Assembly: GCA_041659685.1 (NCBI GenBank) | Contig: JBAZXV010000002.1 | Coordinates: forward strand, 39,527-103,526 | Length of the DNA stretch: 64,000 nucleotides | Direction: 5' to 3' | Origin: Parcubacteria group bacterium | GTDB lineage: Bacteria > Patescibacteriota > Minisyncoccia > Moranbacterales > UBA11712 | Shown: in pieces, positions 15,027-50,626 of the stretch | Numbering within the stretch: position 1 is the first letter of the stretch | Layout: each line of letters opens with the position of its first letter | The notes under the pieces: model-generated | The model's input: the letters and a program-made list of their open reading frames with translations, nothing else | The model's database searches: none | What the model was told of the DNA's origin: nothing | Program-made: the position numbers and the translations under genes

Positions 15027-15132
15027 CACCTCCTTTCTAGGGAGATACGGTGATATAGTGATATTCGTATCACTACAAACCTATACGGTCGTTAATAGAT
15101 TCAAGGCATACAGGGCAACCGCAAAAATTTGC
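15027..15132 (+). repeat. R1 element copy a (conserved ends CACCTCCTTTCTAGGGAGATACGGTG ... GGCAACCGCAAAAATTTGC; internal hairpin TAGTGATA-TTCG-TATCACTA)
   Basis: Member of a five-copy family (38811-38946, 42133-42261, 44184-44350, partial 50606-50626). The hairpin sequences differ between copies but complementarity is maintained. Confidence 0.6.
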
Positions 15133-15206
15133 AATTACAAGCTGAAAAATACCTCTTTGGTAATTTTTGGGCAAGAAGACTTACAGTTTCCGAATTGTAG
15201 GTCTTT

Positions 15207-16295
15207 TTGTTTATGAACGCCGAAAACAACATCTCCCCAAGAAGAGCTAGTTCCTACGCACATACGGATAGGGAGACTTGCTACATTTCCGACCATTTGG
15301 AAGGGTTTATGGAATACGGTGAGTATGAGCTGAATCTCGCGAAAATCACGATGGTCAAATACAAGGACGGGCTGATACATTTCACGAAGTATATCGGCGA
15401 CAAGGATGTGCGCGACATCACGCAGGCGGACATCATCAAGCTGAAACGCCTTATGCGGGAAAAGGGAGTGGGAGCATTGAGAGTCGGGACGGTTATTTGG
15501 GCTTTGCGAAGTTTTATGAATTATTGCAACAATTTTTTGGGCGTGCGGACTATAAACCCGAAATCAATAAGACCCCCGCGTGCCCCGAAGAGAGAAGTGA
15601 TTTTCCTCACGAAAGAGGAAGTCGGGCAGTTCGTCGATTCAATCGACACCTCAAAATTGATGGGGCTTCGTTTCAGGGCGTTGGTGGAAATCATTCTTGG
15701 GACGGGAATGAGAATCAGCGAAGTCTTGTCGCTCAACAGAAAAAACATCCCCTGGGAAAGCAAGGAAGCGAAAATCATCGGAAAAGGCAACAAGGAACGC
15801 GCGGTTTTCTTTACGGACAGGGCTTTAACTTGGATTCGGCGGTATTTGGAAAAAAGGTTTGATTCCAACGAGGCGGTGTTCGCGACGGAAGACGGGATGA
15901 GAAGGCTGAAACTGGACGACATATCGAAGTTTTTCATCGCGGCGCGGAAGAAGGCGGGAATGGACAAGCTCATCACGCCCCACATTTTGCGCCACACCGT
16001 TGCGACGAATTTGGTTTTCAATGGCTGTCCGCTTCCGCACGTCAAGGAGATTTTGGGGCACGAACTGCTGGATACGACTTGCAAATACTACCTTGGCGTG
16101 GACAAGGAACAAGCGAAAAAAGCTCATCGCGAATATCTAACTTTTAACACTTGGGAATCAAGACCAAGAAATGACCAACAACTACGAGAAAAAAGAGAAC
16201 GGCAAGAACGCGACCGGCAGGCCGCCGAAGTTCAGTTCGCCCGAAGAAATGGAAAGGATGGGAATGGAGCATATCGAGGAATGCAGGAAGAATGA
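15207..16295 (+). CDS. Tyrosine recombinase / integrase (GC-rich, likely foreign)
   Basis: RISEVLSLNRKNI (box I) and HILRHTVATNLVFNGCPLPHVKEILGHELLDTTCKYY (box II with catalytic Tyr). About 50% GC against a ~33% background. The 3' end probably lies before 16295 and overlaps the next ORF. Confidence 0.75.
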   Translation: MFMNAENNISPRRASSYAHTDRETCYISDHLEGFMEYGEYELNLAKITMVKYKDGLIHFTKYIGDKDVRDITQADIIKLKRLMREKGVGALRVGTVIWALRSFMNYCNNFLGVRTINPKSIRPPRAPKREVIFLTKEEVGQFVDSIDTSKLMGLRFRALVEIILGTGMRISEVLSLNRKNIPWESKEAKIIGKGNKERAVFFTDRALTWIRRYLEKRFDSNEAVFATEDGMRRLKLDDISKFFIAARKKAGMDKLITPHILRHTVATNLVFNGCPLPHVKEILGHELLDTTCKYYLGVDKEQAKKAHREYLTFNTWESRPRNDQQLREKRERQERDRQAAEVQFARRNGKDGNGAYRGMQEE

Positions 16296-16596
16296 CAAAC
16301 CTATCACCATTACGGGAATTTGCCTAAAACTGGACACAACCCGCCAGACTTTGCTGGATTATGAGAGGAAGAACGAGTTTTCTGACACGGTAAAAAGGCT
16401 TAAACTGCACGCCGAGAACTATGCCGAGGAAACTTTATACAACAAGAACGGGCGGGCGGTAGTCGGCGCGATTTTCGCGCTCAAGAATTTCGGCTGGAGC
16501 GACAAAATGGAATTTGAAAACAGCTACAAGCCTCAAATTATGACCGAGGAAGAACGGGAGAAAATGCGCGAGAGAATAAGGAATTTTGATGAGTAG
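16171..16596 (+). CDS. Phage terminase small subunit-like protein (prophage remnant)
   Basis: GRPPKFSSPEEMERMGMEHIEECRKNDKPITITGICLKLDTTRQTLLDYE...AVVGAIFALKNFGWSDK matches the conserved TerS pattern (GRP.kf....., HTH, ..FaLKn.GW.DK). No large terminase or structural genes follow. Confidence 0.55.
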   Translation: MTNNYEKKENGKNATGRPPKFSSPEEMERMGMEHIEECRKNDKPITITGICLKLDTTRQTLLDYERKNEFSDTVKRLKLHAENYAEETLYNKNGRAVVGAIFALKNFGWSDKMEFENSYKPQIMTEEEREKMRERIRNFDE

Positions 16597-16842
16597 AACT
16601 TTGAAAACGAAAGGCAAGTTGGTTGTGTTTTTGGTTTTTTGGCGTATAATATAGATACAATTGAATGTCCTAACCCTAGCGGATTTTCCCTAGGTATGGC
16701 GCATAATCCACTGCAACATAGAGACGGCTTTCTGTCTCGTTATCGCGTTGCAGTGGTTGCCGCCCGAAAGGGTGGTAGGTGAGTTCCGAAAGGCACTTAC
16801 CGACGAGCGGGAAGCCTTTTGTGTTTGTTGGAGGCTATGACG

Positions 16843-16888
16843 CCGTTATAACATTGCTTTCCGTTATAACATTTCACGTTATAACAGC
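16843..16888 (+). promoter_or_regulatory. Three direct repeats of CGTTATAACA (17-bp phasing) immediately upstream of the integrase start; candidate arm-type/operator sites
   Basis: CCGTTATAACATTGCTTTCCGTTATAACATTTCACGTTATAACAGCC. Each repeat has a palindromic GTTATAAC core. The integrase ATG is at 16891. Confidence 0.4.
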
Positions 16889-16890
16889 CT

Positions 16891-17814
16891 ATGGACATAA
16901 AATCATTAGAAACTATGCAAGACATAGATTTTCTCCAATATACGGCGAAGCGGATTTTTGATTTGCTGGATATAAGCGAAAACACCCGCGAAGACTATAA
17001 GTCGCGGGTTTATTTGTATTTGCGATTTGTTCAAGAAAACGGATACAACTTTAACAGCTTTCTCGACTTCAAAAGGGAATTGGAAAAAAGAACGGATTTG
17101 AGCACGGCGACAAAAAACAAATACTTGGCGACGGCAAAGATATTTCTCAAGGAACTGAATCGGCAAGGAATTATTCCCGCTGACATTACGCAAAATATAA
17201 AAACCTTCAAGCAAAGCAAGAAGCATAAACGGGAAGGCTTGAATGATGGTGAAATAAAATTGCTGGTTGATAGGTTCAAGCAGTTGCCAGCCACATCCGA
17301 AAGCACCCGTCTCAAAGCTATTTTAAGTCTGTTGATTTTTCAGGGGCTTCGCCAGATTGAAATTGTAAGGCTGGATATAAAGGATTTAGACTTCACGGCA
17401 AAGATGGCTTTCGTGCTAGGCAAAGGAAGGGACGACAAGGAATCGATAGATTTGCATCCTGAAACAATCAGGAATCTCAAGGAATACCTCAAAACAAACA
17501 AAATAGCGGACGGCGCGTTATTCACAAATAGAAGCAACAATGGAAAGGGTAAAAGAATCACGACCCGTGCTTTACGCGGTATAATCAAAACCATCCTTAA
17601 AGATTTGAAAATTGACAAGACTACGCACGGCTTCCGCCATTATTTCACTTCGAAGCTCATTGAGACTTACAAGGGCGATTTGCTGGAAGTTGCCCGCTAT
17701 ACCCGCCATAAGAGCCTTGAAATGTTGCAAGTCTACAATGACAACATCAAGCGCAAAGCCGATTTGCCGAGATATTATGAGACTTTCGGGGGCATAAAGT
17801 TATCAAGCGATTAG
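16891..17814 (+). CDS. Tyrosine recombinase XerC/D-like integrase (intact paralog of the pseudogene at 1-657)
   Basis: LRQIEIVRLDIKDLDF (box I region) and HGFRHYFTSKLIETYKGDLLEVARYTRHKSLEMLQVYND (box II with catalytic Tyr). About 70% amino-acid identity to the fragment at the window start. Confidence 0.85.
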   Translation: MDIKSLETMQDIDFLQYTAKRIFDLLDISENTREDYKSRVYLYLRFVQENGYNFNSFLDFKRELEKRTDLSTATKNKYLATAKIFLKELNRQGIIPADITQNIKTFKQSKKHKREGLNDGEIKLLVDRFKQLPATSESTRLKAILSLLIFQGLRQIEIVRLDIKDLDFTAKMAFVLGKGRDDKESIDLHPETIRNLKEYLKTNKIADGALFTNRSNNGKGKRITTRALRGIIKTILKDLKIDKTTHGFRHYFTSKLIETYKGDLLEVARYTRHKSLEMLQVYNDNIKRKADLPRYYETFGGIKLSSD

Positions 17815-17840
17815 TTTGAAATAAAAAGTAAAATAAAAAT

Positions 17841-18242
17841 ATGTTCTACGAAACATTCAGTTGGTGGGGATTGTTAGTTGTTTGCGTTGCGCTGGGATAT
17901 TCGCAGCAAATCGGAGCTTACGGCAGGGGACGGAAAAGCACGAAAATAGAAAACGTTTCCAATTTGCTGATTGTTATCGTATTCGTTGTCTCTTTTTTCA
18001 TAAGCGGTGTTTGGGGCGGAGTATTTCTTGTTTTGGCTTTCATTGTGGTAAATTCGACCATCACAAAATATATTATAAAGGCGACATTCCAAAAATCAAT
18101 CCGCTATACGCCGTTGGATAGGGAGGAAGTGCAAAGGCAGGTTATGGATGAGTTTATGGAGAAAAACAAAAATGTCGGCGATGGGTTCAGTATCGTGGAT
18201 GTTGAGAGGGAAGTAAGGAGGAGATTGAACATCAAAGATTGA
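17841..18242 (+). CDS. Small integral membrane protein (about 3 TM), hypothetical
   Basis: Hydrophobic helices WWGLLVVCVALGY, LLIVIVFVVSFFISGVWGGVFLVLAFIVV. Confidence 0.4.
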   Translation: MFYETFSWWGLLVVCVALGYSQQIGAYGRGRKSTKIENVSNLLIVIVFVVSFFISGVWGGVFLVLAFIVVNSTITKYIIKATFQKSIRYTPLDREEVQRQVMDEFMEKNKNVGDGFSIVDVEREVRRRLNIKD

Positions 18243-18271
18243 ACGGATTTCAGCCTTGAACTTCCGATAAC

Positions 18272-20798: not shown

Positions 20799-20799
20799 A

Positions 20800-21057: not shown

Positions 21058-21066
21058 ATTAACAAT

Positions 21067-34230: not shown

Positions 34231-35229
34231 ATGAATAAGAAAGTTAAATTCGGCATAATATTGGGAATAGGCTTGCTTCTTATTGCAGGATTATTCATAG
34301 CATATCGAATACTTTTTGGTGCGCCTCAAAAGCAAGGGGGAAGCGAAATTTTTACGGTTGGGATGAAGCAGGATGAATCGCAAATTTTGGATAAACTAAA
34401 GAGCCAAGGCTTTATCAGAAATAAGTTGGCATTCAATTTAGTTCTGTCTCTTACACGCCAGCACGGAAAGATAACTCCTGGCGGATATAACTTATCCAAA
34501 AATTTAAGCGTTTGGCAATTGGAAAATAAAATAACCGCTGCTCCTGATATGAAATGGGTTGTAATTCCCGAAGGCTGGAGAAAAGAACAAGTAGGGGAAC
34601 TTCTGACGAAAACTTTCAACTGGAGCGATGATGAGCTTGTGAAATGGAATACGGTCTACACCAAAATGAGGATTGATTATATTGAAGGAACATATTTTCC
34701 CGACACTTATCTCATTCCAGTAAACGAAAACGGCTTGGATGTTGCCAATCGGATGGCAAGACGTTTTGATGAACAATTCGCTCCCTATATCAACCAATTT
34801 GCCCAGCAAAACATTGTCTGGACAACGGGAATCAAAATGGCTTCGATTATCCAGCGGGAAGCTGGAGGGAAAGATGATATGCCCATCATTGCGGGGATAA
34901 TGTGGAATCGGCTTAATCAGGGAATGAATTTGGAGGTGGATGCGACTGTTCAGTATGCACGAGGGAAAACTGATACAGGTTGGTGGGCGCCTATCAAGCC
35001 AGAAGACATAACCAACATTGATTCTCCGTATAACACTTATAAATATAAAGGCTTGCCCCCGCATCCAATTGACAGTCCTGGAATTGATGCGATTGAGGCG
35101 GTCTTGCATCCCGCGGAAACGGACTGCCTATATTATTTGCACGATAGCAATCGGCAAATTCATTGTGCCAAAACATACGAAGGGCACCAAGCAAATATTG
35201 AGCAATATTTAGAAAAAGTGGAAAAATAA
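34231..35229 (+). CDS. mltG: Endolytic murein transglycosylase MltG (YceG family)
   Basis: N-terminal TM helix. YceG-family signatures IPEGWRKEQVGELL, YFPDTYLI, SIIQREAG, YNTYKYKGLPPHPIDSPG. Confidence 0.8.
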   Translation: MNKKVKFGIILGIGLLLIAGLFIAYRILFGAPQKQGGSEIFTVGMKQDESQILDKLKSQGFIRNKLAFNLVLSLTRQHGKITPGGYNLSKNLSVWQLENKITAAPDMKWVVIPEGWRKEQVGELLTKTFNWSDDELVKWNTVYTKMRIDYIEGTYFPDTYLIPVNENGLDVANRMARRFDEQFAPYINQFAQQNIVWTTGIKMASIIQREAGGKDDMPIIAGIMWNRLNQGMNLEVDATVQYARGKTDTGWWAPIKPEDITNIDSPYNTYKYKGLPPHPIDSPGIDAIEAVLHPAETDCLYYLHDSNRQIHCAKTYEGHQANIEQYLEKVEK

Positions 35230-37311: not shown

Positions 37312-38307
37312 ATGGATGAGAAGACAAAAAATCTAGTCGAAGAATTTCTGCTCAAATCCGAAGCGAAGGGAGAAATTTCTGACTCCACGGTCGTGAAGTA
37401 TCGAAGTCTCCTTCTTTACTTTTTCAAATTGATGGGCAAAAGCATTTTCAATTTGACGGCTGGAGACTTTGATAATTTCATAGTCCAGAAGAAGAATTAC
37501 GAAGAGAAGCCTGTCCTAGCTACAACGCTTCGAAACTACGCTTTCGCTCTTCGGAAATTCGTCGCTTATCTCAAAAAAAACGGCGTGGATTTGAAAATCG
37601 GTGCAAGCGATATTGAGATTCCCAAGGATAAGCGGAAGCGCAAGCCCGTTTATCTGACCGATGAAGAGGTGCTTCGTTTCCTTGCCGCTATTTCGGAAGA
37701 CGGGACTGAATTGCGTGTAGTTCGGTTCTATACTCTTGTTCAGCTCCTGCTTGATTCGGGGTCAAGAATCAGCGAAGCATTGTCCGTAAAGGTAAAAGAC
37801 ATTGACTGGGAGAAGCGGACGGTGGATATTGTCGGCAAGAATGACAAGGAGAGGACGCTTATGTTTGGAAGCGAAGCTGAACAATGGCTCAAACGATATT
37901 TGGCGAGGCGCAAGAGCGATAACGAGTATCTGTTCACTACGATAGACGGCAAGAGGCAATGGAAGAAGTTTGAGATTGATGACCTCTTTCGACGATACGC
38001 CAAGAAGGCTGGGATAACCAAGCAAACGACCGCCCACGCTATGCGCAGGACTTGTGCCACGCGGATGTTGCGCAGGGGTCTTAAAATCAACGATGTTTCA
38101 TATCTGCTGGGACACGCAGATTCGCAGACCACTCTAAAGTATTATATCGGCGTTCCCACTACAGACGAGTTGCGCGAGAAGATAACCGACGACTACTACA
38201 AGTTCGCTCCCGAATCGGAACTGAAAAGGCTCGGCTTTCAAAACAAGGCTGGTTTAGCTGGTGCGGGCGACGCTAATGATGATTTGCCCCATTGTCCCAA
38301 ATGGTAG
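37312..38307 (+). CDS. Tyrosine recombinase / integrase
   Basis: SRISEALSVKVKDI (box I) and HAMRRTCATRMLRRGLKINDVSYLLGHADSQTTLKYY (box II with catalytic Tyr). Confidence 0.8.
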   Translation: MDEKTKNLVEEFLLKSEAKGEISDSTVVKYRSLLLYFFKLMGKSIFNLTAGDFDNFIVQKKNYEEKPVLATTLRNYAFALRKFVAYLKKNGVDLKIGASDIEIPKDKRKRKPVYLTDEEVLRFLAAISEDGTELRVVRFYTLVQLLLDSGSRISEALSVKVKDIDWEKRTVDIVGKNDKERTLMFGSEAEQWLKRYLARRKSDNEYLFTTIDGKRQWKKFEIDDLFRRYAKKAGITKQTTAHAMRRTCATRMLRRGLKINDVSYLLGHADSQTTLKYYIGVPTTDELREKITDDYYKFAPESELKRLGFQNKAGLAGAGDANDDLPHCPKW

Positions 38308-38326: not shown

Positions 38327-38810
38327 ATGGTATAGCATCACTAAATAAATGAAATCAATCGAACGAAAATTTAAGGAGATTAAGGGAAAGAAGCCGTGGC
38401 TAAGTTCGCATAGTCATTTCGTCGAGGCGATAACGGGCAAGAGATTCAGCTCAAAGACAATGCGGATTTGGTTTTATAAACTTGTCGAAAAAGACGACTA
38501 CGACAAAAGCAACAAAAAAGAGGTGTTGGAATATCTGGAGTCGCGATTGAAACCTTTGAGGACGGAAAAAAACAGGGGGTAAAGGGGTCTAGGAGACGCG
38601 AAAAAAACGAAGACGGTGTATTTTGCATTCCAGGGAGATATGAAACGCTGGGCGCGAGAATAAAAAAATTGACAACTCGAAAATTTTTTGCTAGACTTCT
38701 TTTAGAAAGTGATGATATTTCCCAAAGATAATCAATTTTTTGCAATCGAGATTCGGTAAGTCGACTTGTCCACAATTCAAATTTTTGGCTTGTCCTAAGT
38801 CCGCCCCACT

Positions 38811-38946
38811 CACCTCCTTTCTAGGGAGATACGGTGAAAGAGTTGATGTTCAGCATCAACTTCTCAATCCTAAATGGTCGTTCGTTAGCCTTCGGGCTGA
38901 TGGATAAAATAGACTCAAAAGCATCAGGACAACCGCAAAAGTTTGC
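38811..38946 (+). repeat. R1 element copy b (hairpins AGTTGATG-TTCAG-CATCAACT, AGCC-TTCG-GGCT, CTGATG...CATCAG)
   Basis: Same conserved 5' (CACCTCCTTTCTAGGGAGATACGGTG) and 3' (GACAACCGCAAAAGTTTGC) ends as the other copies. Confidence 0.6.
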
Positions 38947-39074: not shown

Positions 39075-39971
39075 TTGAATTTCAACATTCTGGAGGAAAG
39101 AAAAATGAGTTCTTTGCAAAAATTTGTTTTGGGAATCCCGAATCCCGGCAGCAGCCTTTTTGATTCAACAGTTCAGCTGTTTAATAAAATTGGCGTGCAA
39201 GTTGCCTATAACGGGCGGGCCTTCGAGGGAGAGATTGAGGGCGTTGATATATTCGGTAAGGCATGTTTGATGCGCCCTCAGGATATTCCCAATGCTATCT
39301 CGAAAGGCACCCTCGATTGTGGCATCTGCGGGTGGGATTGTGTTGTGGAGAGCGGCTTAGAAAATAAGCTTGTGAAGATTTCTGAGCTGAATTACGGCAA
39401 GAAATTGACAAAACCTGTGAGGATTGTGGCTTTTTCAAGAAAATTCTCAACCCTTAAAGAAAATGAGAGTATTACCGTCACCACCGAATACCCCAACATT
39501 ACGAGGGCGGCTTTCAAAAACATTCCTCAGGAAAACATTGATTTTTCCTACGGGACTACGGAGGCAAAGGTTGCAGCAGGAATGTATGATTATGGGGTCT
39601 GCGTGACCGAAGGGGGGAAAAGCCTAATTGATAACAACCTGCAAATTGTTCGGGTGCTCTTGGTTTCACCGACCGTGTTCATGGCAAAACTCGAAGCACC
39701 GGAACTGGAAAGTTTCGGGAAGATGTTGGAAGGGGCATTGCTTGCGAAAAAATTACAACTCATCACAATGAATGCCGATGCAAGCGTGAAGGATGAGATA
39801 CTTTCGATTCTTCCCGCGCTAAAATCCCCAACGGTCAGCAGGTTGGAGGATGGGGGGTACAGCATTTCGACCGTAGTCGAAACTAAGGATGTGGCAAATC
39901 TCTTGCTCAAACTGAGACAGCTCGGAGCAGCGGGTATTATCGGAACTGATATCAACTTCGCTATCAAATGA
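39075..39971 (+). CDS. hisG: ATP phosphoribosyltransferase, long form (HisG)
   Basis: KFVLGIPNPGSSLFDSTVQLFNKIG and LMRPQDIPNAISKGTLDCGICGWDCVVESG match the HisG R..DIP..V..G..D.GI.G.D...E block. C-terminal regulatory domain present. Confidence 0.7.
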   Translation: MNFNILEERKMSSLQKFVLGIPNPGSSLFDSTVQLFNKIGVQVAYNGRAFEGEIEGVDIFGKACLMRPQDIPNAISKGTLDCGICGWDCVVESGLENKLVKISELNYGKKLTKPVRIVAFSRKFSTLKENESITVTTEYPNITRAAFKNIPQENIDFSYGTTEAKVAAGMYDYGVCVTEGGKSLIDNNLQIVRVLLVSPTVFMAKLEAPELESFGKMLEGALLAKKLQLITMNADASVKDEILSILPALKSPTVSRLEDGGYSISTVVETKDVANLLLKLRQLGAAGIIGTDINFAIK

Positions 39972-39984
39972 TTTATCACTAGAA

Positions 39985-40416
39985 TTGCCTGATGCCGTTC
40001 GCTTCCAAAAAATGGGAGATAAACCAATGAAATGTGAGAAGTGTGTGTCGAGGTGCGCATGGTGCAAAAAACCAATATGTGACAGGTGCAATTTTACTTC
40101 ACAGAGTTATCTATCGGAAAGGTACAGGAAATGGAGGGAAGTCAAAAAAATAGGGATAATAATTCTTCGTGAATACGAGGAAGAAACACGTTTCATCGGA
40201 TTTTGTTCTTTGCTCCTCGGGGATTTTGCCAGGCGGAATAACCTAATTGTGGAATGCAGAGTGAGAGATTCTCCGTTCCGCAATCAAAGAGTTCTTTATC
40301 TTCACTTAGAAGAGGGAGGTACGTGCCATACCTTAGAAATTTCCAAGAAAAAGAAAATAATTTCTTTCAGCTGGCATTTTCCCATCGAGATCCTTAGGAA
40401 TGTCGATGCCAGATAG
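39985..40416 (+). CDS. Hypothetical Cys-rich protein
   Basis: N-terminal CEKCVSRCAWCKKPICDRC cluster. Confidence 0.3.
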   Translation: MPDAVRFQKMGDKPMKCEKCVSRCAWCKKPICDRCNFTSQSYLSERYRKWREVKKIGIIILREYEEETRFIGFCSLLLGDFARRNNLIVECRVRDSPFRNQRVLYLHLEEGGTCHTLEISKKKKIISFSWHFPIEILRNVDAR

Positions 40417-40500
40417 GCCGGTTTGAAATCGGCAAGCCAGCCGCAGAACAGCCCGAAGCATTGCTCCGGGCTCTTACTTTTTGTTTGAATTCAGCCGCGG

Positions 40501-41157
40501 ATGCTATACAATGCTAATATGATCTATCTAATAGGCGGGCCGCCCAAATGCGGCAAAACAACACTGGCGAAAAAATTGTCCAAACATCTGGAAGTGCAAT
40601 GGATCTCAGCGGACACCTTGCAATCCATAGCTTTTGCATACACTGTGAAAAAAGATGTGCCAAAAAAGTTTCCATGGCGAGTCGCGAGGAAAAAGGCGGG
40701 CAGAGGCAATGACCTGGCATTCTCTGCATATTCTTCTGCTCAAATTGTCAGGAAGTACCGATCGCAAGCCAAAGCAACATGGCCAGCAATTGATATGGTT
40801 GCGGCATCGGAAATAAATGATAGGAATGACTATATAATCGAGGGTTATCAAGTCGAGCCCAGGCTGGCGGACAAGCTTACGAAGAAATACGGAAAGAAAA
40901 ACATTCGGACGATTTTTCTGATTCGAACCGACAAACAAACTTTATTAAAAGATATCAAGAAAAGCACAACACTGAATGATTGGATAAAGTCCAGGACGAA
41001 AAACGAGGAAACTTTTGGAAAAATAGCAGAGATGATATCCAGGTACGGCTTGGAGATCGGGAGGGAGACAAAAAAATATAAGATCCCGGCTTTAAACATG
41101 GATAAGAATTTTGAGGGACAAATAAGGGAAGTAATAAAATTCTTAAAACAGAATTAA
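40501..41157 (+). CDS. P-loop NTPase / small-molecule kinase-like protein
   Basis: Walker A IGGPPKCGKTTLAKKL. Confidence 0.5.
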   Translation: MLYNANMIYLIGGPPKCGKTTLAKKLSKHLEVQWISADTLQSIAFAYTVKKDVPKKFPWRVARKKAGRGNDLAFSAYSSAQIVRKYRSQAKATWPAIDMVAASEINDRNDYIIEGYQVEPRLADKLTKKYGKKNIRTIFLIRTDKQTLLKDIKKSTTLNDWIKSRTKNEETFGKIAEMISRYGLEIGRETKKYKIPALNMDKNFEGQIREVIKFLKQN

Positions 41158-41357
41158 TCGCAAAAACTTGCGATACTTTAGATAGCTGAAATAGGGATAA
41201 AACCCTGTTTCAGCGTTATCACCCAGGAGATGATTCATTTCAAGGGAGATTTTTGGAGTCCGCTTCGCTTGACTTCAGATTCGCTTGTTGATAGCATTTA
41301 ATGAGGCTAAAAAGGGGGATTCAGTCCCTTACAAACTAAAAGAAAAGGGGGCATATT

Positions 41358-41837: not shown

Positions 41838-42132
41838 GGGGGGAGAATGGCAGCCTACACTGCGTGCATCAGTTATGGGCAGAGAAAAAGTCTGCTTTTT
41901 CCCTTGTGTGGTGCGAAGTCCTTCAGTGCTCGCTGTGCGACTGATGAAGAAGCCATTAGAACATTTCGAAGTATTGCCATCAAAGATTTCTTTTGCATGT
42001 TTCACAAAATCACGGTTGCAATACACCAGGGTCAGCGGTTTGTATTTGAAGGCTGCGTACAACCACTTTAACTTTCCAGGGCAACTGCCCAGCCAGGCTT
42101 TCACGAGTCTGGCTTTTTTCTTTCCAGATTTT

Positions 42133-42261
42133 TTTCTAGGGAGATACGGTTGAGAGCTCCGACTTATCGGAGTAAGAACCCATACAGTCGTTAGACTTCT
42201 TGGCAGCCCGCCTGCGCTCTTCTGAGCTACGGCGAGGCGAAGGACAACCGCAAAAGTTTGC
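42133..42261 (+). repeat. R1 element copy c (hairpin CTCCGA-CTTA-TCGGAG); left direct repeat of the Fic cassette
   Basis: About 111 bp near-identical to copy d at 44238-44350. Confidence 0.65.
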
Positions 42262-42854: not shown

Positions 42855-42888
42855 CTGCAAAAGTTTATAATAATCTTGCGCTTGCCGG

Positions 42889-42945
42889 TTTGTATACATC
42901 TGTTGACATAATGTATACAAACTACTATACTTTGTATACATTATT
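42889..42945 (+). promoter_or_regulatory. Three TTGTATACA palindromic repeats upstream of the fic start codon; candidate operator
   Basis: GTTTGTATACATCTGTTGACATAATGTATACAAACTACTATACTTTGTATACATTA. A TTGACA -35-like hexamer is embedded. Confidence 0.45.
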
Positions 42946-42964
42946 AATTGAATGTAAACAAACT

Positions 42965-44107
42965 ATGAAAAACATCAAAATTGGCTCGTATATAGCTCAA
43001 AAGGAAGGTTTTAAGGCTTTTACCCCCAATCCATTCCCTCCAAAGGGCGGCTTTGATTTTGAACCGAAAATTTCGAAAAAAAATGATGAAGCGACCCGAC
43101 TATTGGGAAAGCTGGATGGAATTACAAAACTGCTGCCTGATTCCGATTTCTTCCTTTTGATGTATCTGCGAAAAGATGCCGCATCTTCAAGTCAAATTGA
43201 AGGGACAAGGGCGTCTATGATAGACGCAATTGCCGCAGAAGCGGATATAGATACGAATATGCCAGAGGATGTAGACGACATATTGCATTACATCAAAGCT
43301 CTTAATTATGGAATGAAGCGGGTAACTGATGATAATTTTCCTATGACTTTGCGGTTTATTCGTGAGCTTCACAGACAGTTGATGCATAAAGCACGCTCAA
43401 CTCATTTTTCCGACCCTGGAGAATTTCGTAAAAGTCAAAATTGGATTGGCGGCACTCGTCCAGATAATGCTCGTTTTGTTCCGCCGTCTATCATTGATAT
43501 GCAAAAAGCTCTCGGTGATTTGGAAAAATTTATTCATACCGAGGATAATATCCCGACTGTGATCAAAGCAGGAATTATTCACGCCCAATTCGAGACTGTC
43601 CATCCTTTTTTGGATGGAAACGGCAGAACTGGCAGGATGCTAATTACTTTTTATCTTTGGAAAGAGGGATATCTGGAGAAGCCAGTGTTGTTTTTGTCTT
43701 CCTTTTTCAAAAAACACCAAAAACTTTATTACGAAAAACTTTTCGGCTACCACAACGGAAATATTTTCGAGTGGATAGATTTTTTTCTTGACGGTGTTAT
43801 TGAAATTGCCAATGAAGCCATAGATATCGTGGGAAAAATTACCATCCTGCGTCAAAAAGATATAATGAAAATCCAAAAATTGGGCAAGCGATCTTCTGAA
43901 AGCGGAGCCGTTGTTTTGCCGAAATTATACGGTCAGCCGATTGTGAATGCCAATGTTATCCAAAAGTGGACTGGATTTACTCGTGCTGGGGCGCAAACTG
44001 TAATCGACAGATTTATCAAAATGGGAATCCTGGTTCCTAAGGATAAAGACAAAAAATACGGACAGGCGTATATTTACAAGGAATATGTGGATATATTTAA
44101 CGAATAG
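42965..44107 (+). CDS. fic: Fic/Doc-family protein (AMPylation toxin family) with C-terminal winged-helix
   Basis: Canonical Fic motif VHPFLDGNGRTGR. The ORF track gives 42890 as the start. The ATG at 42965 (MKNIKIG) lies downstream of the operator repeats and is preferred. Confidence 0.8.
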   Translation: MKNIKIGSYIAQKEGFKAFTPNPFPPKGGFDFEPKISKKNDEATRLLGKLDGITKLLPDSDFFLLMYLRKDAASSSQIEGTRASMIDAIAAEADIDTNMPEDVDDILHYIKALNYGMKRVTDDNFPMTLRFIRELHRQLMHKARSTHFSDPGEFRKSQNWIGGTRPDNARFVPPSIIDMQKALGDLEKFIHTEDNIPTVIKAGIIHAQFETVHPFLDGNGRTGRMLITFYLWKEGYLEKPVLFLSSFFKKHQKLYYEKLFGYHNGNIFEWIDFFLDGVIEIANEAIDIVGKITILRQKDIMKIQKLGKRSSESGAVVLPKLYGQPIVNANVIQKWTGFTRAGAQTVIDRFIKMGILVPKDKDKKYGQAYIYKEYVDIFNE

Positions 44108-44183
44108 GAGGAGATTGAAAAATAAAATCAACACGACATCCTCGATCCTCCATGAATCACCTCCCTGCACAAGGCAGGTAAAC

Positions 44184-44350
44184 TTTCTGGGGAGATCTTT
44201 ATCCCGTAGTAAAGCATCAGCTTTTACTGCTGGGATAGTTGAGAGCTCCGATCTATCGGAGTAAGAACCCATACAGTCGTTAGACTTCTTGGCAGCCCGC
44301 CTGCGCTCTTCTGAGCTACGGCGAGGCGAAGGACAACCGCAAAAGTTTGC
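44184..44350 (+). repeat. R1 element copy d with an extra inserted hairpin (TATCCC...GGGATA); right direct repeat of the Fic cassette
   Basis: 3' 113 bp near-identical to copy c. 5' TTTCTGGGGAGAT conserved. Confidence 0.65.
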
Positions 44351-44508
44351 TATTTCAAAGAGCACCACATCAGGTGCTTTCTGTGTTATTTGCCAAGAAG
44401 CGACCGACCAGAGGGAGATATTTAGAGTCCGCTCCGCTTGACGATAATTTTATTTATTTACGCAAAAGTATATTCGGAGTAAAATATAGTGGTAAAAACC
44501 AAAATTAA

Positions 44509-46144: not shown

Positions 46145-46162
46145 ACCGAATATTTGCAGGCA

Positions 46163-46510: not shown

Positions 46511-49500
46511 ATGTTTATAGAAGTAAAATCCGAGGAGAGGAAAATAGGGCCGGAATCAGTTGAACAGATGGAAAGCGCGGAAACTATTGCCAAAGAGAAG
46601 ACGCCGGAAGAACAGCGGGCAGAGAATATTGAACTCATGACTCAAAGAGCCAGGCATTTTATTGCGGAAAAAAAAGCCGAAAAGGAGAAAAAAAATGCCC
46701 GCAGGGAACTGGAATCCGTTCCGCAGGATGTAGACCGGCCGGAAGGGCGGCAGAATGAAGAAGCGGAAGATGCACAAGAAAAACCGGGAGAGCAGAAGGG
46801 AATCATTTCAGGATTGAAAGATAAATACAGGCTATGGAAGCTGAAGCGGAGCGGATTTCCTGATCCCGGGAAAGCCTTGGGATTTTTTGAATATATAAGC
46901 AGCAGGGCAGATTCAACTTTAAAATTCGACAGCGACACCCTGAATCTGATAAGGGATACATTCAGAGCGACAAACGACCCGATTGCTTTTTATGAAAAAA
47001 TAAAGCAGCTGAACTTAAAGATCGCGCAGCCGATTATCAAACCCAATTACGGCTTAGGAACTTTGATGAGGGATCCGGATATATTTAAGAAGCTTGACCT
47101 TTGGCAGTCAGTCAATGAATCACTGGGATTTGGCGATGCAAATTCTTCGGGAGACGATCTCAGATATTTTTGCGGAGAAACCGAACTGCACGCCGGATTA
47201 TCCGCTGAAAATTTGAACCGGATCAGTCAATTGCGGAATTTATCGGGGTCGCTTTTTTCTGTGAGCGATCTGAACTGGCTGGCAAATTGCGTGGAGGACA
47301 GGCATACTTTTGAGTCGTTGGGAAAACTCTTGGGAAGTGAATATGCAAAAAACCTCAGAGACAAAAATATACTCAGAGTGGAAGACTTGGCAAAAAAACT
47401 GAAAGATCTCGACGCGAGCGGAATGACAGAGAGTCTGTTAATCGGAGCCGATATGAATTTGGATGTCGGGAGCGCCATAAGAGAGCTGACCTCCGAAGAT
47501 GAAGAAGAAAAAGCGGCGAGTGTCGAAAAAACAAAGGCATTGGAGCTGGAAGAACGAGCGAAAGACGAAAAATTCCGGGAGCTCGCCGGGGATCTCTCGC
47601 TCTTTTCCGGAAAGGATTTTGGAATAAATGAATACCAAAAATTGGAGAGCCTTTACCAATGGCACAAGGATTACGCGCTGGCTTTTGCGCAAGCTTTTGA
47701 GGATTTGGGTATCCTTAATCGATCCCAGGAAGGAACACTAAACCTTGAAGAATTCGAAGACACCCTGGGCCATTGGAAAAATGAGGCCGGATATGGCAGT
47801 CCGGAAGTTTTTTTCGCCCTTCTGGATCCTTCGTTCAATGAAATGATCTCAATTTTGAAAAGAGAGAAAGGCGACTTCAAGACAAGGGATATATTCAGAT
47901 ATGCTTTCCTGTATGCCCGAGAGCCGGAAGTCATTAAATCTTTGGAATCGGATGAAGGCAAAGAACTCCTGCAATTTTTTACGGAACGCGGAATGGATTT
48001 TCTGGGACACGCAGAATTTTTTAAGCATCCCGGAATTGCCAAAATGCTCAAAGGATATGATGAATTTTTTGATATTCAAAAAGGTTGGTCGCTAGACGGA
48101 TTTTTGGAGTTGTATAATCGAGGTGAGACGGCCAATGAATTATTAGATTACCTGAAAGAAAATAAATTCAAACCGGATGGAAAATTTGAGATCAATAAAA
48201 TCCCGCTTCTCGTTAAAATTCACAGCATCAAGGATTCCATCGATGCCGAATACTTCAGGAAATATCCCAATTTTTTTCTCAGCGAAAAGACTGTGGACTT
48301 TATAATAAGCGATCCAAGCAAAGCTCCCGACGTTTTTTCCTTGGCCGAAGACGGCTATCTTGAAGGGCAGAATTTCCAATCCATAAGGTGGTTTCTTCAA
48401 GACAACCTTGAAGACATTCTTGCTATTCCCCGTGAAAAAAGAGACACATATATGAAGCTTTACCGCCGATTGGACGGCTCTCCTTCTCAGGAGATACAAC
48501 GGCTGAAAAAAGAGCTTACCAGGGAACTGTTGAAACTGGATGAACCGGAAAGTGCATACCAGAGAATAGAAGAAATATTTATCACGAACAATTTGCCGCC
48601 GGTCGGAAAGATTTATAAAGTATTTGCGGTAATTCATTCTCCTGCCGCAATGCAAGAACTCCTGGAAAGCAACGACAGGCTTAGTCCGTGTCTCAGGGAG
48701 TCTTCGGTGAGAAAAAGATATACTACAATATACAGAGATCTTTTGAACATTCACATCAAGTCCGGGAACCGGATTCTGAGAGATTATCTGGAAGTCGCGA
48801 ATGAGGGACAGGGCATCTTCGACAAGATGGAAACAGAGGGCGAGGAAAGCCTGAATAATGAAGAGAGGAGAAAGGCGGAATTTGTCCTGAAAAAACTGAA
48901 AACGCTGTGGGAAAATTCATCGCGAGGGATGCGAATGGATCCAAACAATCTCAGCATAAACGACGGGCTTGGCAATTTTTATAATAATTTGAAGACATCA
49001 ATAGGTGCCAAGGAAGGGCAGACGGTCACGGCCCGAATTTCCCAAATGTTTTTAGCGCCTGCCGGATACCAAAGCATAGAGCACGTGTTGGCCGCAATGA
49101 ATGAAGCCAAAGGAAAGGCCGGCACGCGCGGTCTCGAAACGGCAGATCTCCTGCGAAAAGGAGAATTTAATATCAAGGCGGGAGATGTCATCAAAGGCAT
49201 GCCATCTGGCAGGATGGGAGCAATCTTGCAGGGCGGAGCGGTGGCAGGAGAATATTTAGGCAGTGAATCATCATCGGATTCCACTCCTTATGACTCCGAT
49301 GTTTTCAGGGTGTCTGATTTAGGGGGAAATGCGGATTTTTCGGAAAATATCAAAAAATATTTTGGTGAGGGATACGGAGATGTCAATATTATTGTAAGAG
49401 ACAGGGGCCAATTCGACGAAACTTCCAAAGGAAGCTCCAGGGGGTATGATCCTTCCAAGCTGGAACTGTTCAGAACCGGAGTGATTTCGAACGAACATTA

Positions 49501-50587
49501 CGGGATTCGGACCGGCTTTCCTTCAAGTGAGATAGACTTGATGGTTGTCAGCGAAAACACCAAACAAGATGAAAAAAGGATGTCAAAGCTCTTTTTTGAT
49601 ATCGCCGAAAACGGATTTTATATCCCCGTTGCTGATACTTCCGGGAAATTGATTTTTAGTCCGGAGCAATATGAAGAATACCGAAGAATATTCAGAGGCC
49701 TGGAAAGATTTGATGGAAACAAGTTTGAATATCTGAACACGAAAGAAGGCGATCAAAACTACGATGAGGTGGAGAGGATTCGAAGGGAATTCAAAGAGGA
49801 TAGGGACCGCGTTGCGGCTCTGTCTCAGAAAATTAGAGACATGATAACCGACGTGTTGCGACAGCACGAAGTCACGTTGCGGGATAATCTGGACAACAGC
49901 ATCTTAGGCGCCGAACTAATGGACATAGGGTCCACGGCGAGGCATACTAATGCGATCGGGGATTATGATTTTGACCTGACTTTGCGGCTGGATGACCGGG
50001 ACATGGACAAAATAGGTGATATTGTCCGGGACCTCCAGGCCGGATTGCAGGCTGAAAGTTATTCAGATTCTCACGGAGATGAAAAAGGTGGCTACCAATT
50101 GAGGGCTAAACAGGGCCGCTTGTCCGGAGAAAATCCGGCGGATATCGACATTGGCTTTGTCCGCAAGTCCGACCTCGTTTATTTCGGATCTCACGAAGCC
50201 GTGCAGGAGCGTTTGGATTGGATAAAAAATAATATTAGCGAAGAGGCTTATGAAAAAACGATTGCGAACGTTATTCTGGCAAAAAAAATTCTGAAAGAAG
50301 GCAAAGCTTATAAGCGCGTGGAAGACGGCGGGATGGGCGGCATCAGTGTTGAGAATTGGATATTGCTCAACAGCGGCAATCTTGTCGAAGCATTCAGAAC
50401 TTTTTTGGCTGCTGCGATCGATGAAAACGGAACCCAGGTTCCGTTGGATGAATTCAAGCAGAAATACAAGATCCTTAATCCGGGAATGAATCTCAAAAAG
50501 CTTTATCATGACAATTATACGATGAATTTGAAGGAAGGGGGATATAACGCAATGATAAAAACCATTGAAAATTATCTCAAAGGTTGA
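46511..50587 (+). CDS. Giant (1358 aa) acidic protein with C-terminal Pol-beta-superfamily nucleotidyltransferase domain; candidate secreted/effector NTase (AMPylase-like)
   Basis: N-terminal charged coiled coil. At about aa 1140, MDIGSTARHTNAIGDYDFDLTLRL is the hG[GS]-x9-13-DhD NTase motif. A downstream third acidic strand ADIDIGFVRK. About 47% GC. Confidence 0.6.
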   Translation: MFIEVKSEERKIGPESVEQMESAETIAKEKTPEEQRAENIELMTQRARHFIAEKKAEKEKKNARRELESVPQDVDRPEGRQNEEAEDAQEKPGEQKGIISGLKDKYRLWKLKRSGFPDPGKALGFFEYISSRADSTLKFDSDTLNLIRDTFRATNDPIAFYEKIKQLNLKIAQPIIKPNYGLGTLMRDPDIFKKLDLWQSVNESLGFGDANSSGDDLRYFCGETELHAGLSAENLNRISQLRNLSGSLFSVSDLNWLANCVEDRHTFESLGKLLGSEYAKNLRDKNILRVEDLAKKLKDLDASGMTESLLIGADMNLDVGSAIRELTSEDEEEKAASVEKTKALELEERAKDEKFRELAGDLSLFSGKDFGINEYQKLESLYQWHKDYALAFAQAFEDLGILNRSQEGTLNLEEFEDTLGHWKNEAGYGSPEVFFALLDPSFNEMISILKREKGDFKTRDIFRYAFLYAREPEVIKSLESDEGKELLQFFTERGMDFLGHAEFFKHPGIAKMLKGYDEFFDIQKGWSLDGFLELYNRGETANELLDYLKENKFKPDGKFEINKIPLLVKIHSIKDSIDAEYFRKYPNFFLSEKTVDFIISDPSKAPDVFSLAEDGYLEGQNFQSIRWFLQDNLEDILAIPREKRDTYMKLYRRLDGSPSQEIQRLKKELTRELLKLDEPESAYQRIEEIFITNNLPPVGKIYKVFAVIHSPAAMQELLESNDRLSPCLRESSVRKRYTTIYRDLLNIHIKSGNRILRDYLEVANEGQGIFDKMETEGEESLNNEERRKAEFVLKKLKTLWENSSRGMRMDPNNLSINDGLGNFYNNLKTSIGAKEGQTVTARISQMFLAPAGYQSIEHVLAAMNEAKGKAGTRGLETADLLRKGEFNIKAGDVIKGMPSGRMGAILQGGAVAGEYLGSESSSDSTPYDSDVFRVSDLGGNADFSENIKKYFGEGYGDVNIIVRDRGQFDETSKGSSRGYDPSKLELFRTGVISNEHYGIRTGFPSSEIDLMVVSENTKQDEKRMSKLFFDIAENGFYIPVADTSGKLIFSPEQYEEYRRIFRGLERFDGNKFEYLNTKEGDQNYDEVERIRREFKEDRDRVAALSQKIRDMITDVLRQHEVTLRDNLDNSILGAELMDIGSTARHTNAIGDYDFDLTLRLDDRDMDKIGDIVRDLQAGLQAESYSDSHGDEKGGYQLRAKQGRLSGENPADIDIGFVRKSDLVYFGSHEAVQERLDWIKNNISEEAYEKTIANVILAKKILKEGKAYKRVEDGGMGGISVENWILLNSGNLVEAFRTFLAAAIDENGTQVPLDEFKQKYKILNPGMNLKKLYHDNYTMNLKEGGYNAMIKTIENYLKG

Positions 50588-50605
50588 TGAATGGACTTAG
50601 CGGCA

Positions 50606-50626
50606 GGGACAACCGCAAAAGTCTGC
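50606..50626 (+). repeat. Partial R1 3'-end copy e (GGGACAACCGCAAAAGTCTGC) immediately after the giant-gene stop, followed by two hairpins
   Basis: Matches only the conserved 3' end of R1. Hairpins GCTATA/TATAGC and GACAGG/CCTGTC follow. Confidence 0.45.

Follow-up and report, generated by a model that had tools for sequence, protein, structure and literature searches.

A repeat family, apparently paralogous to the 16S rRNA 3′ trailer, at island and cassette junctions of a Moranbacteria-type CPR bacterium

Tandem integrative elements at the 3′ ends of tRNA and tmRNA genes, such as the ssrA-targeted islands of Dehalococcoides (PMC3146451), are the closest described counterparts of the locus considered here, and a general account of tandem arrays is available (PMC7192596). 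The locus lies in a 64,000-nt stretch of a Parcubacteria group genome (the window) and is best read as a variant, so far new, of these tandem islands. As in the tRNA and tmRNA islands, a tyrosine recombinase gene adjoins the att repeat, each element brings its own duplicate of the target RNA gene's 3′ part, the junctions are recognisable by direct repeats and 3′ fragments, and the cargo is adaptive and defensive. The differences concern the target, which appears to be the last 7 nt of the 16S rRNA together with a non-mature 3′ trailer, and the repeat, which is long (95–190 nt), mostly present in full, and built of modules whose hairpins vary freely. Moreover, the 16S leader is mimicked at the island right ends here, the recombinases belong to the Xer-like type, and many units have no integrase.

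The window contains four full copies of the element (a–d) and several 3′ fragments, all on the + strand and far above chance. Copies a–d and fragment e had been reported in an earlier sequence-only reading and are confirmed in position and strand; the additional pieces listed here were missed by it.

15027–15132, + strand: copy a, a full 16S-trailer paralogue (covariance-model match 100.8 bits).
38619–38689, + strand: degenerate, weak element remnant (covariance model 16 bits, E about 0.2); missed earlier.
38811–38946, + strand: copy b, a full trailer paralogue forming the right-hand junction of island B.
41154–41175, + strand: 3′-only fragment TTAATCGCAAAAACTTGCGA; missed earlier.
42133–42261, + strand: copy c, full, but without CACCTCC and without the left arm.
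44184–44350, + strand: copy d, of the long form (two additional 5′ hairpins).
50590–50626, + strand: fragment e, only the leader-pairing 3′ third of the element, extending the earlier call of 50606–50626.
52370–52419, + strand: fragment f, a degenerate 3′ half (covariance model 14.5 bits); missed earlier.

The 5′ block TTTCTAGGGAGATACGGTG occurs three times, compared with 0.03 expected (at most 3 mismatches), and the 3′ block GGRCAACCGCAAAARTYTGC five times, compared with 0.08, which bears out the proposed family and its conserved termini. On its own, the central block is not long enough to reach significance (8 matches, 5 expected). The element starts further 5′ than first stated, with a left arm and CACCTCC at 15014–15033 and 44145–44164. 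Copies c and d, described before as near-identical repeats, share a common body of about 113 nt with 2 mismatches, and the UUCG-type tetraloops attributed to two copies are found in a and b. The element was also said to mark cassette and island boundaries, and copies a and b do lie at island junctions, copy a between islands A and B. Copy a is nearly identical to the 16S-adjacent copy of one related locus (L025; L numbers denote such loci). The type of variable hairpin (P1) seen in copy b also occurs directly 3′ of 16S genes in L059 and L041, and the long form of copy d recurs in L003, L020, L022, L030, L042 and L045. Fragment e directly follows the stop codon of a 1358-aa ORF. The fragment at 41154–41175 abuts the stop codon of the kinase ORF 40501–41157 and resembles the 3′ block GGACTAATCGCAWAAGATTG of another lineage's trailer, while fragment f is the last copy ahead of conserved chromosomal genes. 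The truncation points of the 3′-only pieces vary, and the suggestion that they are att-type partial copies holds.

The origin of the element is indicated by its position elsewhere. About 25 related metagenome loci have a genuine 16S rRNA gene with the element starting at the gene's last base; the preceding sequence there ends in GTCGTAACAAGGCATCCGTAGCGGAAGCTGTGGATGGATCACCTCC, and Rfam confirms SSU rRNA. In all eight loci with both 16S ends, the leader TGCAAnTTTTTGYGGTTGTCC and the 3′ block of the element form a duplex of 20–24 bp, with energies of −40 to −56 kcal/mol versus −17 to −32 for shuffles. Leader GCGG or GTGG is matched by trailer CCGC or CCAC with no mismatched combination in these eight loci. 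On these sequence grounds, the element is identified as a paralogue of the 3′ trailer of the 16S precursor in CPR (Moranbacteria-type) bacteria, with its 3′ block as one strand of the predicted pre-rRNA processing helix. The resemblance to the 16S 3′ end noted earlier is therefore real but reflects homology rather than mimicry, because the element follows genuine 16S genes and its 3′ block pairs with the leader. For the same reasons, its conserved structure appears to be inherited from the pre-rRNA spacer. The GCAAA/TTTGC "mini-hairpin" of the earlier reading is better read as part of the leader–trailer helix, and the "perfect Shine-Dalgarno" reported for the opposite strand follows simply from the anti-Shine-Dalgarno sequence on the + strand, with no minus-strand start codon at a workable distance.

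In E. coli and B. subtilis, the helix between the leader and trailer of pre-16S rRNA is the substrate of RNase III. Similarly, the element placed right after 16S pairs with the 5′ leader over at least 20 bp. In its native setting, the first ~25 nt would adjoin the anti-Shine-Dalgarno tail, one to four hairpins of free sequence would occupy the middle, and the last ~35 nt, AATAGAC...GGRCAACCRCAAAAGTTTGC, would pair with the leader, forming a long helix around 16S, the usual substrate of precursor processing. In contrast to E. coli and B. subtilis, the trailer is followed here by a terminator and not by tRNA or 23S genes. Unlike in the usual helix, the trailer, here a presumed cleavage substrate, also exists in many extra copies away from any leader; no rRNA was found in the window, and no 16S gene in the 1.8 kb upstream of it (L074).

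The second line of evidence comes from the recombinase genes and the island ends.

8569–9507, + strand: IntR-type Xer-like recombinase of island A.
14943–15013, + strand: right end of island A, with the conserved motif TAACAAC(C)TTAATT(T/C)AGC.
14990–15008, + strand: leader-like piece ACTTTTGCGAAAGTCCTGC within this right end, complementary to the trailer 3′ block.
15207–16295, + strand: IntL, 75 nt beyond copy a, the Xer-like tyrosine recombinase of the island B left end.
16891–17814, + strand: Int2, the second Xer-like recombinase of the island left-end module (Pfam/NCBIfam).
37312–38307, + strand: Xer-like recombinase of the IntR type, close to the island B right end (profile match).
38778–38799, + strand: leader-like piece CAAATTTTTGGCTTGTCCTAAG just 5′ of copy b, complementary to the 3′ block.

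All four integrases of the window are simple, Xer-like tyrosine recombinases; IntL matches Pfam Phage_integrase at 2.7e-37 and is Xer-like by NCBIfam, under every curated cut-off. The order IntL, gp3-like gene, (LOOT), Int2 is repeated in L074, where Int2 is split. L037, L072 and L022/L036 have homologues of the IntR type close to island right ends. By eye, the motif of the island A right end, together with TTTTGCG, is common to 14943–15013 and to stretches upstream of the element in L037, L005, L022 and L063; in L037 and L022, the motif-bearing stretch follows an IntR-type integrase. A minus-strand covariance-model match at 38777–38837 is the reverse complement of a 3′ block, comparable to real 16S leaders.

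As a recombinase family, IntL homologues lie 60–400 nt 3′ of the element. Nine loci found by DNA pattern have one directly after an element copy (L020, L025, L028, L037, L040, L056, L067, L070, L072), and in six of them (L025, L028, L037, L056, L067, L072) the element itself directly follows the 16S gene. In an independent test, five IntL homologues of ~60% identity served as queries and protein similarity was the sole criterion. The element was present upstream in all eight further loci chosen this way (L075–L082), each with (T/A)CACCTCCTTTCYAGGGAG 200–260 nt 5′ of the integrase gene. What follows copy a, formerly taken for a phage segment, is instead a defence island that encodes a PIN protein and hydrolases besides a type I restriction-modification system. 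The limits of island B may be composite, since it includes YceG, a housekeeping-type gene.

The core sites of the dif/Xer and lox/Cre systems consist of two inverted arms of ~13 bp around a 7-bp spacer. IMEX elements integrate at dif, and the cis-mobilizable elements (CIMEs) of streptococci are leftovers of ICE accretion. The sites below are relevant to this comparison; CACCTCC is the anti-Shine-Dalgarno heptamer of 16S rRNA.

15014–15046, + strand: putative recombination core of copy a, with left arm TTCTCCCGGAGAA, spacer CACCTCC (15027–15033) and right arm TTTCTAGGGAGAT.
41218–41268, + strand: D block 1, the 13-7-13 inverted repeat ATCACCCAGGAGA-TGATTCA-TTTCAAGGGAGAT plus a GGAGTCCGCTTCGC hairpin.
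41269–41297, + strand: promoter-like site directly after D block 1.
44145–44164, + strand: left arm ATCCTCCATGAAT and CACCTCC at the 3′ end of the Fic cassette.
44387–44438, + strand: D block 2, after the post-element terminator of copy d.

As in sites of the dif/lox type, for which arms of 11–13 bp and spacers of 6–8 bp are typical, the putative core has two inverted arms of ~13 bp around a 7-bp spacer, and simple Xer-like recombinases without arm-binding domains are encoded nearby. The arms of copy a agree at 8/13 positions; ATCTCCCACGAAT-CACCTCC-TTTCTAGGGAGAT, with 10/13, is present in at least nine distinct copies. In contrast to dif and lox, the spacer is the 16S anti-Shine-Dalgarno sequence and the chromosomal site has only one good arm. 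Integrase-less units bounded by att sites inside arrays recall the CIMEs; unlike those of dif/lox, IMEX and CIMEs, however, the elements here bring recombinase genes of their own, two or three to an island.

Homology breaks coincide with the spacer. Copy a and the 16S-adjacent copy in L025 have different flanks 5′ of CACCTCC but parallel sequence from this heptamer on. Between the window and L039, the Fic cassettes agree at 87.7% over 1288 nt, and the homology stops exactly at 44164, the final base of CACCTCC. Likewise, L078, positioned after 16S, and L079, with another flank, have identical sequence from CACCTCC on and unrelated sequence to its left, and 194 pairs combine the same element body with different upstream flanks. 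The D blocks, missed by the earlier reading, form a second conserved module after the post-element terminator. They share the 13-7-13 inverted-repeat architecture with class II copies (arm identity in the D blocks, 8–11/13) and the arm motif with the cores, but their spacers vary. Copies c and d lack the standard left arm or core spacing. The site model is thus incomplete.

The trailer identity, the leader complementarity, the integrase linkage and the homology breaks at CACCTCC were all observed. We therefore consider it likely that islands target the 16S 3′ end, each with a surrogate trailer, and that repeated insertion built the co-oriented array, which exceeds 54 kb, combines islands with integrase-less cassettes, and carries restriction-modification, Abi, Fic and kinase genes. 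The core, whose exact cleavage points we infer, would probably comprise the 7-bp spacer CACCTCC and the flanking arm TTTCTAGGGAGAT, with the island side contributing the inverted arm ATCTCCCNNGAAT.

A clearly less probable reading is an integron-like capture platform, in which the 16S 3′ end would be the analogue of attI and the trailer-like elements of the cassettes the analogues of attC. Island-encoded Xer-like recombinases would then mobilise integrase-less cassettes in trans, and the array would stand downstream of the cell's most strongly transcribed gene. Like integron arrays (attC, Vibrio VCR), both the window at 38.9–52.4 kb and L071 consist of small co-oriented cassettes separated by repeats of ~100–130 nt whose ends are conserved and whose structured centre varies, and the cargo is rich in toxin-antitoxin and defence genes. 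L071 (= L003 + L005) has at least 13 elements in ~25 kb, with cassettes of 1–4 genes and no integrase. The same cassette genes (Fic, kinase, MNT/HEPN, a 159-aa ORF) recur in different neighbourhoods, and the nearly identical bodies of copies c and d surround the kinase–Fic cassette. A point against the island reading is that many units after 38.9 kb and in L071 keep intact full-length copies without an integrase, which simple island decay does not obviously predict.

Against this, the element has no R''/L''/L'/R' boxes, and its ends lack RYYYAAC/GTTRRRY. An attC-type end-to-end imperfect palindrome was not found either; as single-stranded DNA, the element folds into several local hairpins with unpaired ends. 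No IntI-type integrase with the extra domain is encoded. With TIGR02249, the window integrases score 30–85 bits, mostly in two split stretches, far under the cut-off of 265, and Xer-type models score best. The array is not headed by a single integrase gene with an adjacent insertion site. Furthermore, kinase gene homology between contexts ends at gene ends and not at element cores, and the repeat is homologous to the rRNA spacer.

The earlier reading had proposed a candidate novel structured RNA or a mobile repeat. As a free-standing RNA (ribozyme or riboswitch-like), the element would be an sRNA or a cis-regulatory leader or 3′ UTR module, kept in each cassette for an RNA function of its own, such as transcript processing or read-through insulation and unrelated to recombination. 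The observed covariation of the hairpin, also claimed earlier, is in keeping with this: 89% of P1 cells are paired versus 57% in shuffles and 26–48% in slid controls, with changes on both sides in 8/8 pairs. The underlying alignment, of 76 covariance-model hits (73 distinct) in the window and related loci, was itself fitted to the model tested. A terminator-like hairpin follows each copy on the same strand. Two terminator-like hairpins of the window recur elsewhere.

42091–42114, + strand: terminator-like hairpin shortly before copy c, belonging to the upstream cassette; it also precedes copies in L003, L024 and L046.
44359–44380, + strand: terminator-like hairpin 3′ of copy d; copies in L002, L003, L049 and L069 are followed by a conserved counterpart.

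The leader-like complements at island right ends could also close a mini-precursor helix, and L039 has a solitary Fic-plus-element unit with no second copy in the 6-kb stretch examined. However, the 16S context or the integrase-linked core explains every conserved block. Truncated 3′ fragments abut stop codons, the neighbouring genes are functionally unrelated, and the copies cluster in one array instead of spreading over regulons. Rfam 15 gave no match to the element on either strand, at the gathering threshold or with E up to 10, consistent with the earlier failure to find a known RNA family. A trailer paralogue whose 3′ block complements the leader explains the data instead, and a free-standing RNA seems improbable.

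Very unlikely indeed is an artefact of contigs joined chimerically through rRNA-flank repeats, or a passive selfish MITE/REP-type repeat: contigs often end within the element (L074) and many IntL homologues lie on contigs of 1–2 kb, so the repeat does break assemblies, but the window copies differ in sequence and length, each with surroundings of its own on a single contig, independent assemblies from JGI, ENA, NCBI and Logan show the same architecture, terminal inverted repeats and target duplications are absent, and orientation is uniform (block matches lie nearly all on one strand within each locus) and location clustered.

Returning to islands that target the 16S 3′ end, their position in this genome is suggested by the flanks of the array. 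The array continues upstream of the window in L074, which contains IntL, a gp3-like gene and a further element copy ~1.8 kb from the window start. At the other end, the genes at 54–63 kb are syntenic with genes 2–4 kb 3′ of 16S in L024, L027 and L053/L054, and the L021 homologue lies ~1.8 kb downstream of an element copy. This synteny suggests that the array may be anchored on 16S.

We propose that the 16S 3′ end is the integration site of islands with genes for Xer-like tyrosine recombinases, and that integration separates 16S from its own trailer, which would remain displaced at the island right end. Repeated integration at regenerated cores would then stack islands and small cassettes in one orientation, each junction keeping a full or partial trailer copy; the mode of movement of integrase-less cassettes is likewise one that we infer. 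Recombination between the conserved blocks would shuffle the hairpin modules. These are mosaic and linked to neither flank, so that most junction histories are not reconstructable. As in the tRNA and tmRNA islands, regeneration of the core at both ends would make stacking possible, and the element-borne copy of the target's 3′ part would keep the target functional. Because integration would cut 16S from its trailer, every island would carry a surrogate trailer and terminator at its left end, and this surrogate may be required for 16S maturation.

The 90 nt upstream of every copy were inspected, and in about 25 loci the element directly follows ...GGGTGAAGTCGTAACAAGGCATCCGTAGCGGAAGCTGTGGATGGATCACCTCC, where a genuine 16S rRNA gene ends. 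Rfam confirmed an SSU rRNA at the loci with 16S-preceded elements. In these organisms, therefore, the element is the 16S precursor's 3' trailer. The sequence-only reading had described its 5' end as mimicking CACCTCCTTTCT; the resemblance is real, but it is homology rather than mimicry, since the element follows real 16S genes. The 3' part of the element is reverse-complementary to TGCAAnTTTTTGYGGTTGTCC ... AGAGTCTATT, which lies in the 5' leaders of the same 16S genes. At all eight loci holding both 16S ends, leader and 3' block pair in an unbroken duplex of 20-24 bp, with energies of -40 to -56 kcal/mol versus -17 to -32 kcal/mol for shuffled trailers, and leader GCGG or GTGG and trailer CCGC or CCAC occur in compatible combinations only. 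This complementarity makes the conserved 3' block one strand of a helix enclosing 16S in the precursor, and the GCAAA/TTTGC "mini-hairpin" proposed earlier is a part of that helix instead. The helix enclosing 16S in bacterial pre-rRNA is a processing substrate. From this established knowledge it follows that the leader-trailer helix described here would be one too. The idea of a novel structured RNA thus gives way to 16S 3' trailer paralogues that serve as repeats at the junctions of an array of islands and cassettes; the readings as a mobile repeat at cassette boundaries and as an att-type duplication are upheld.

All four full copies (a to d) and the 3'-only fragment (e) reported from the sequence are present in their places on the plus strand. 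The 5' block occurs three times in the window (0.03 expected) and the 3' block five times (0.08 expected). Copies c and d have a common body, roughly 113 nt long, in which they differ at two positions. After each copy comes a terminator-like hairpin on the same strand, often with the D block, a second conserved module, behind it. The features of the array are listed below, where IntL and Int2 are left-end recombinases of islands and IntR is a recombinase near island right ends.

About -1.7 to 15.0 kb: island A, with IntL, a gp3-like gene, Int2, three minus-strand cargo genes, a primase zinc-finger, an AAA_25 helicase, an IntR-type integrase, a DNA methylase, ResIII and AbiU2
15027-15132, plus strand: copy a, a junction
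15.0-38.8 kb: island B, with IntL, a gp3-like gene, LOOT RNA, Int2, a response regulator, type I restriction-modification with a PIN protein, hydrolases, a methyltransferase, YceG, an HTH protein and IntR
15207-16295, plus strand: IntL, a tyrosine recombinase right after copy a
38619-38689, plus strand: a weak element remnant
38811-38946, plus strand: copy b, a junction
38.9-52.4 kb: cassettes without integrase, in the order HisG-like gene, 143-aa ORF, kinase; 3' fragment; D block; 159-aa and 92-aa ORFs; copy c; kinase, Fic; copy d; D block; Na/H exchanger, 1358-aa ORF; fragment e; DUF218; fragment f
41154-41175, plus strand: an extra 3' fragment, abutting a stop codon
41218-41268 and 44387-44438: D block copies after the post-trailer terminator, as also in many related loci
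52370-52419, plus strand: a degenerate 3' half (fragment f)

Loci retrieved with a metagenome scan yielded 59 distinct full-length copies of 95-218 nt. The element is modular, in the order TTTCTAGGGA, an optional two-hairpin insert, GATACGGT(T)GA and hairpin P1, followed by AAYCCYATAYGGTCGTT, an optional P2, AAAATAGAYTTTAGC, an optional P3 and CAGGRCAACCRCAAAAGTTTGC. In the long form represented by copy d, 19 nt separate CACCTCC from the right arm of the site described below. The co-variation claimed for the variable hairpin P1 was borne out: 89% of cells pair versus 57% in shuffles, and changes on both sides were found in 8/8 pairs, with slid controls at 26-48%. These numbers, from a covariance-model alignment of 76 hits (73 distinct), are flattered because the sequences were fitted to the model; the differing stems are plain in the raw sequences, where P1 has more than a dozen unrelated versions. 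A plain MAFFT alignment put the hairpins out of register, so that RNAalifold did not recover P1 from it, and the covariance-model alignment was used in its place. The hairpin modules are mosaic, shuffled among copies, and for this reason a test of linkage between the element body and its upstream or downstream flank, meant to learn which side brings the element, was uninformative. It also holds that the element matches no known RNA family: Rfam, searched on both strands, gave nothing at the gathering threshold or at E values up to 10. Two other readings were rejected. A leader or riboswitch on the minus strand with a terminal Shine-Dalgarno sequence is contradicted by copies c and d, which lack that sequence, by the missing start codon at a workable distance, and by terminators and T-runs on the plus strand. 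A small ORF from the 5' block meets a stop after two codons in copy a.

The array begins before the window. The related contig L074 (source run SRR18595301), which encodes a protein identical to the 532-aa one of the window, reaches 1.8 kb left of the window, and there holds another element copy, then IntL, a gp3-like gene and a split Int2. This block aligns in one piece with the 16S-adjacent loci L072 and L025. Look-ups for a 16S gene upstream of the window gave a 5.2-kb contig ending inside the element and nothing further. On the other side, synteny links the window genes at 54-63 kb to those lying 2-4 kb downstream of 16S in L024, L027 and L053/L054; in L021, an element copy precedes the homologue by about 1.8 kb. 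The array thus probably occupies the 16S-downstream locus, with 16S itself outside the view. The distance from 16S to the same conserved gene is about 2 kb in relatives, compared with an array of >54 kb in the window. The right ends of the islands share a common motif and a leader-like complement of the 3' block (14990-15008 and 38778-38799), and the integrase-less cassettes keep intact element copies.

Several observations concern the contents of the array. LOOT RNA (RF03000, 58 bits) lies at 16667-16797 on the plus strand, with the gp3-like gene on one side and the second integrase on the other. A homologous island directly after 16S has it in the same place (L037 4167-4287, 83 bits), which makes LOOT a possible component of this island family. 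A YceG/MltG-type housekeeping gene (34231-35229) sits inside the apparent island B, which may be composite or contain captured chromosomal DNA. The cassette at 39075-41157 combines a 143-aa ORF and a P-loop kinase with a HisG-like ATP phosphoribosyltransferase that scores above the NCBIfam cut-off; a histidine-pathway enzyme is odd within a defence-type array. The fragment at 41154-41175, TTAATCGCAAAAACTTGCGA, is closer to the 3' block of another lineage, GGACTAATCGCAWAAGATTG (L078-L080), than to the window's own type, a likeness that hints at cassette transfer between lineages. A long imperfect palindrome at 42872-42982, over the start of the Fic gene, gave a spurious microRNA-precursor match and holds a near-consensus promoter (TTGACA-17-TATACT, 42903-42931). 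It is kept together with the Fic cassette in L039 and, because of this conservation, may be an operator. For the 1358-aa ORF at 46511-50587, previously called a giant NTase, neither Pfam nor NCBIfam gave a match at the thresholds used. In the intergenic region 5190-5290, between minus-strand genes and the ORF at 5351-6199, AGGACAACC in a hairpin and GGCACAACCCTACTTTTGC are reminiscent of the 3' block; either chance or a decayed junction could account for them.

IntL homologues lie 60-400 nt downstream of the element in nine related loci (L020, L025, L028, L037, L040, L056, L067, L070, L072), and in six of these the element copy directly follows the 16S gene. This sample is biased, as the loci were found through the element itself, and an independent, protein-based test was therefore run. 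A protein search returned 1115 IntL relatives at E values up to 1e-30, many on very short contigs. Five relatives with about 60% identity were chosen by protein, and four of them gave eight loci. The motif (T/A)CACCTCCTTTCYAGGGAG is present 200-260 nt upstream of the integrase in 8/8, and the rest of the trailer differs in that lineage.

The point of exchange can be approached from breakpoints. One identical integrase protein follows a 16S gene in L078 and an unrelated flank in L079; the two loci are identical from CACCTCC, the anti-Shine-Dalgarno heptamer of the 16S 3' end, rightward into the integrase gene, and unrelated to its left. The homology of the Fic cassette between the window and L039 (87.7% over 1288 nt) ends at 44164, the last base of CACCTCC. 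The a-type body lies behind an island right end in the window and behind 16S in L025, and 194 pairs, counted over all copies, have a common element body with differing upstream flanks. Two candidate substrates of the recombinases are GCTGTGGATGGAT-CACCTCC-TTTCTAGGGAGAT and ATCTCCCACGAAT-CACCTCC-TTTCTAGGGAGAT. The latter often precedes copies not adjoining a 16S, and its outer parts are 13-bp imperfect inverted arms (10/13) around the 7-bp spacer CACCTCC; the 16S site has the right arm only. We infer that strand exchange would occur in or at the edges of CACCTCC, which fits the breakpoints at its left edge (L078/L079) and right edge (Fic cassette). An origin of the left arm in the 16S leader was ruled out, with no ATCTCCC beside the 16S 5' end in L062 and L064. 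The D block likewise has a 13-7-13 build, the imperfect inverted repeat ATCNCCCWGGAAA-N7-TTTCRAGGGAGAT, and a GGAGTCCGCTCC hairpin comes after it. Its arm motif is that of the 16S-end core, and its spacers are variable. Conservation ends abruptly after ...CGCTCCGC, where unrelated cassettes start. The D block may act as an operator or as a further site of recombination.

In related loci, 16S genes are interrupted by insertions (L064 8611-9361; L078 3087-3632; near the 16S 3' end in L020, L028, L046, L057 and L053): a group I intron, a LAGLIDADG ORF, and an insertion immediately ahead of AACAAGGCATCC, some 40 nt short of the 3' end.

Outside the window, a scan for the 3' block in one genome per species gave a single match at 16 of 19 loci, about the number expected by chance on a rough estimate by hand. 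Multi-copy matches occurred only in Candidatus Moranbacteria GW2011_GWC2_40_12 and one Patescibacteria MAG. The Moranbacteria reference has at least 13 elements in about 25 kb, bounding co-oriented cassettes of 1-4 genes without integrase (sigma/anti-sigma, MNT/HEPN, Fic, kinase). The metagenome scan, with a pattern of 5' block plus central block, found 54 loci with mostly arrayed, co-oriented copies; neither block pattern matched viral contigs. The many small co-oriented cassettes would suit an integron-like capture platform. We consider this rather unlikely, as it fails the attC and IntI tests; each of the four integrases in the window is a simple tyrosine recombinase of Xer-like type that scores under the curated cut-offs for XerC, XerD and XerA, and by a wide margin under that for the integron integrase.

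We propose instead that islands would integrate at the 16S 3' end. Integration would split 16S from its own trailer and push the old trailer to the island right end, so that each island would bring, at its left end, a terminator and a surrogate for the trailer. The core would be regenerated on both sides, so further units could stack. Core regeneration with stacking is how tandem integrative elements work in general (PMC7192596); a close precedent is given by the ssrA islands of Dehalococcoides (PMC3146451). The scheme would account for the conserved 5' block as a recombinase arm and for the 3' block as a sequence that must still pair with the leader when adjoining 16S; it would also cover the free-sequence hairpins, the uniform orientation and the 3'-only fragments. 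A free-standing RNA function of the element, needed for none of the conserved blocks, is very improbable. An assembly artefact is unlikely, with distinct copies in the window and the same architecture in four independent data sources.

A tentative suggestion, possible rather than probable, is a dedicated CPR gene-capture platform at the 3' end of unlinked 16S genes. Xer-like strand exchange would take place within CACCTCC, units would bring a functional trailer mimic and, at the other end, a leader mimic, ribosome biogenesis would survive, and defence and toxin cargo would accumulate, reshuffled in trans. In full-text literature searches, which were not exhaustive, islands at the 16S 3' end were not found to have been reported. 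The defined 13-7-13 site and the large recombinase family (1115 relatives) are candidates for site-specific tools, and the system would offer a natural case of a recombination site overlapping an essential RNA processing signal. What appeared to be a new RNA becomes a concrete, testable case of mobile elements homing to the 16S gene end. This homing explains the poor assembly of 16S-proximal regions in CPR genomes and locates the variable defence genes of these minimal genomes. If true, the capture platform would be an analogue of integrons with an rRNA processing signal at its base.
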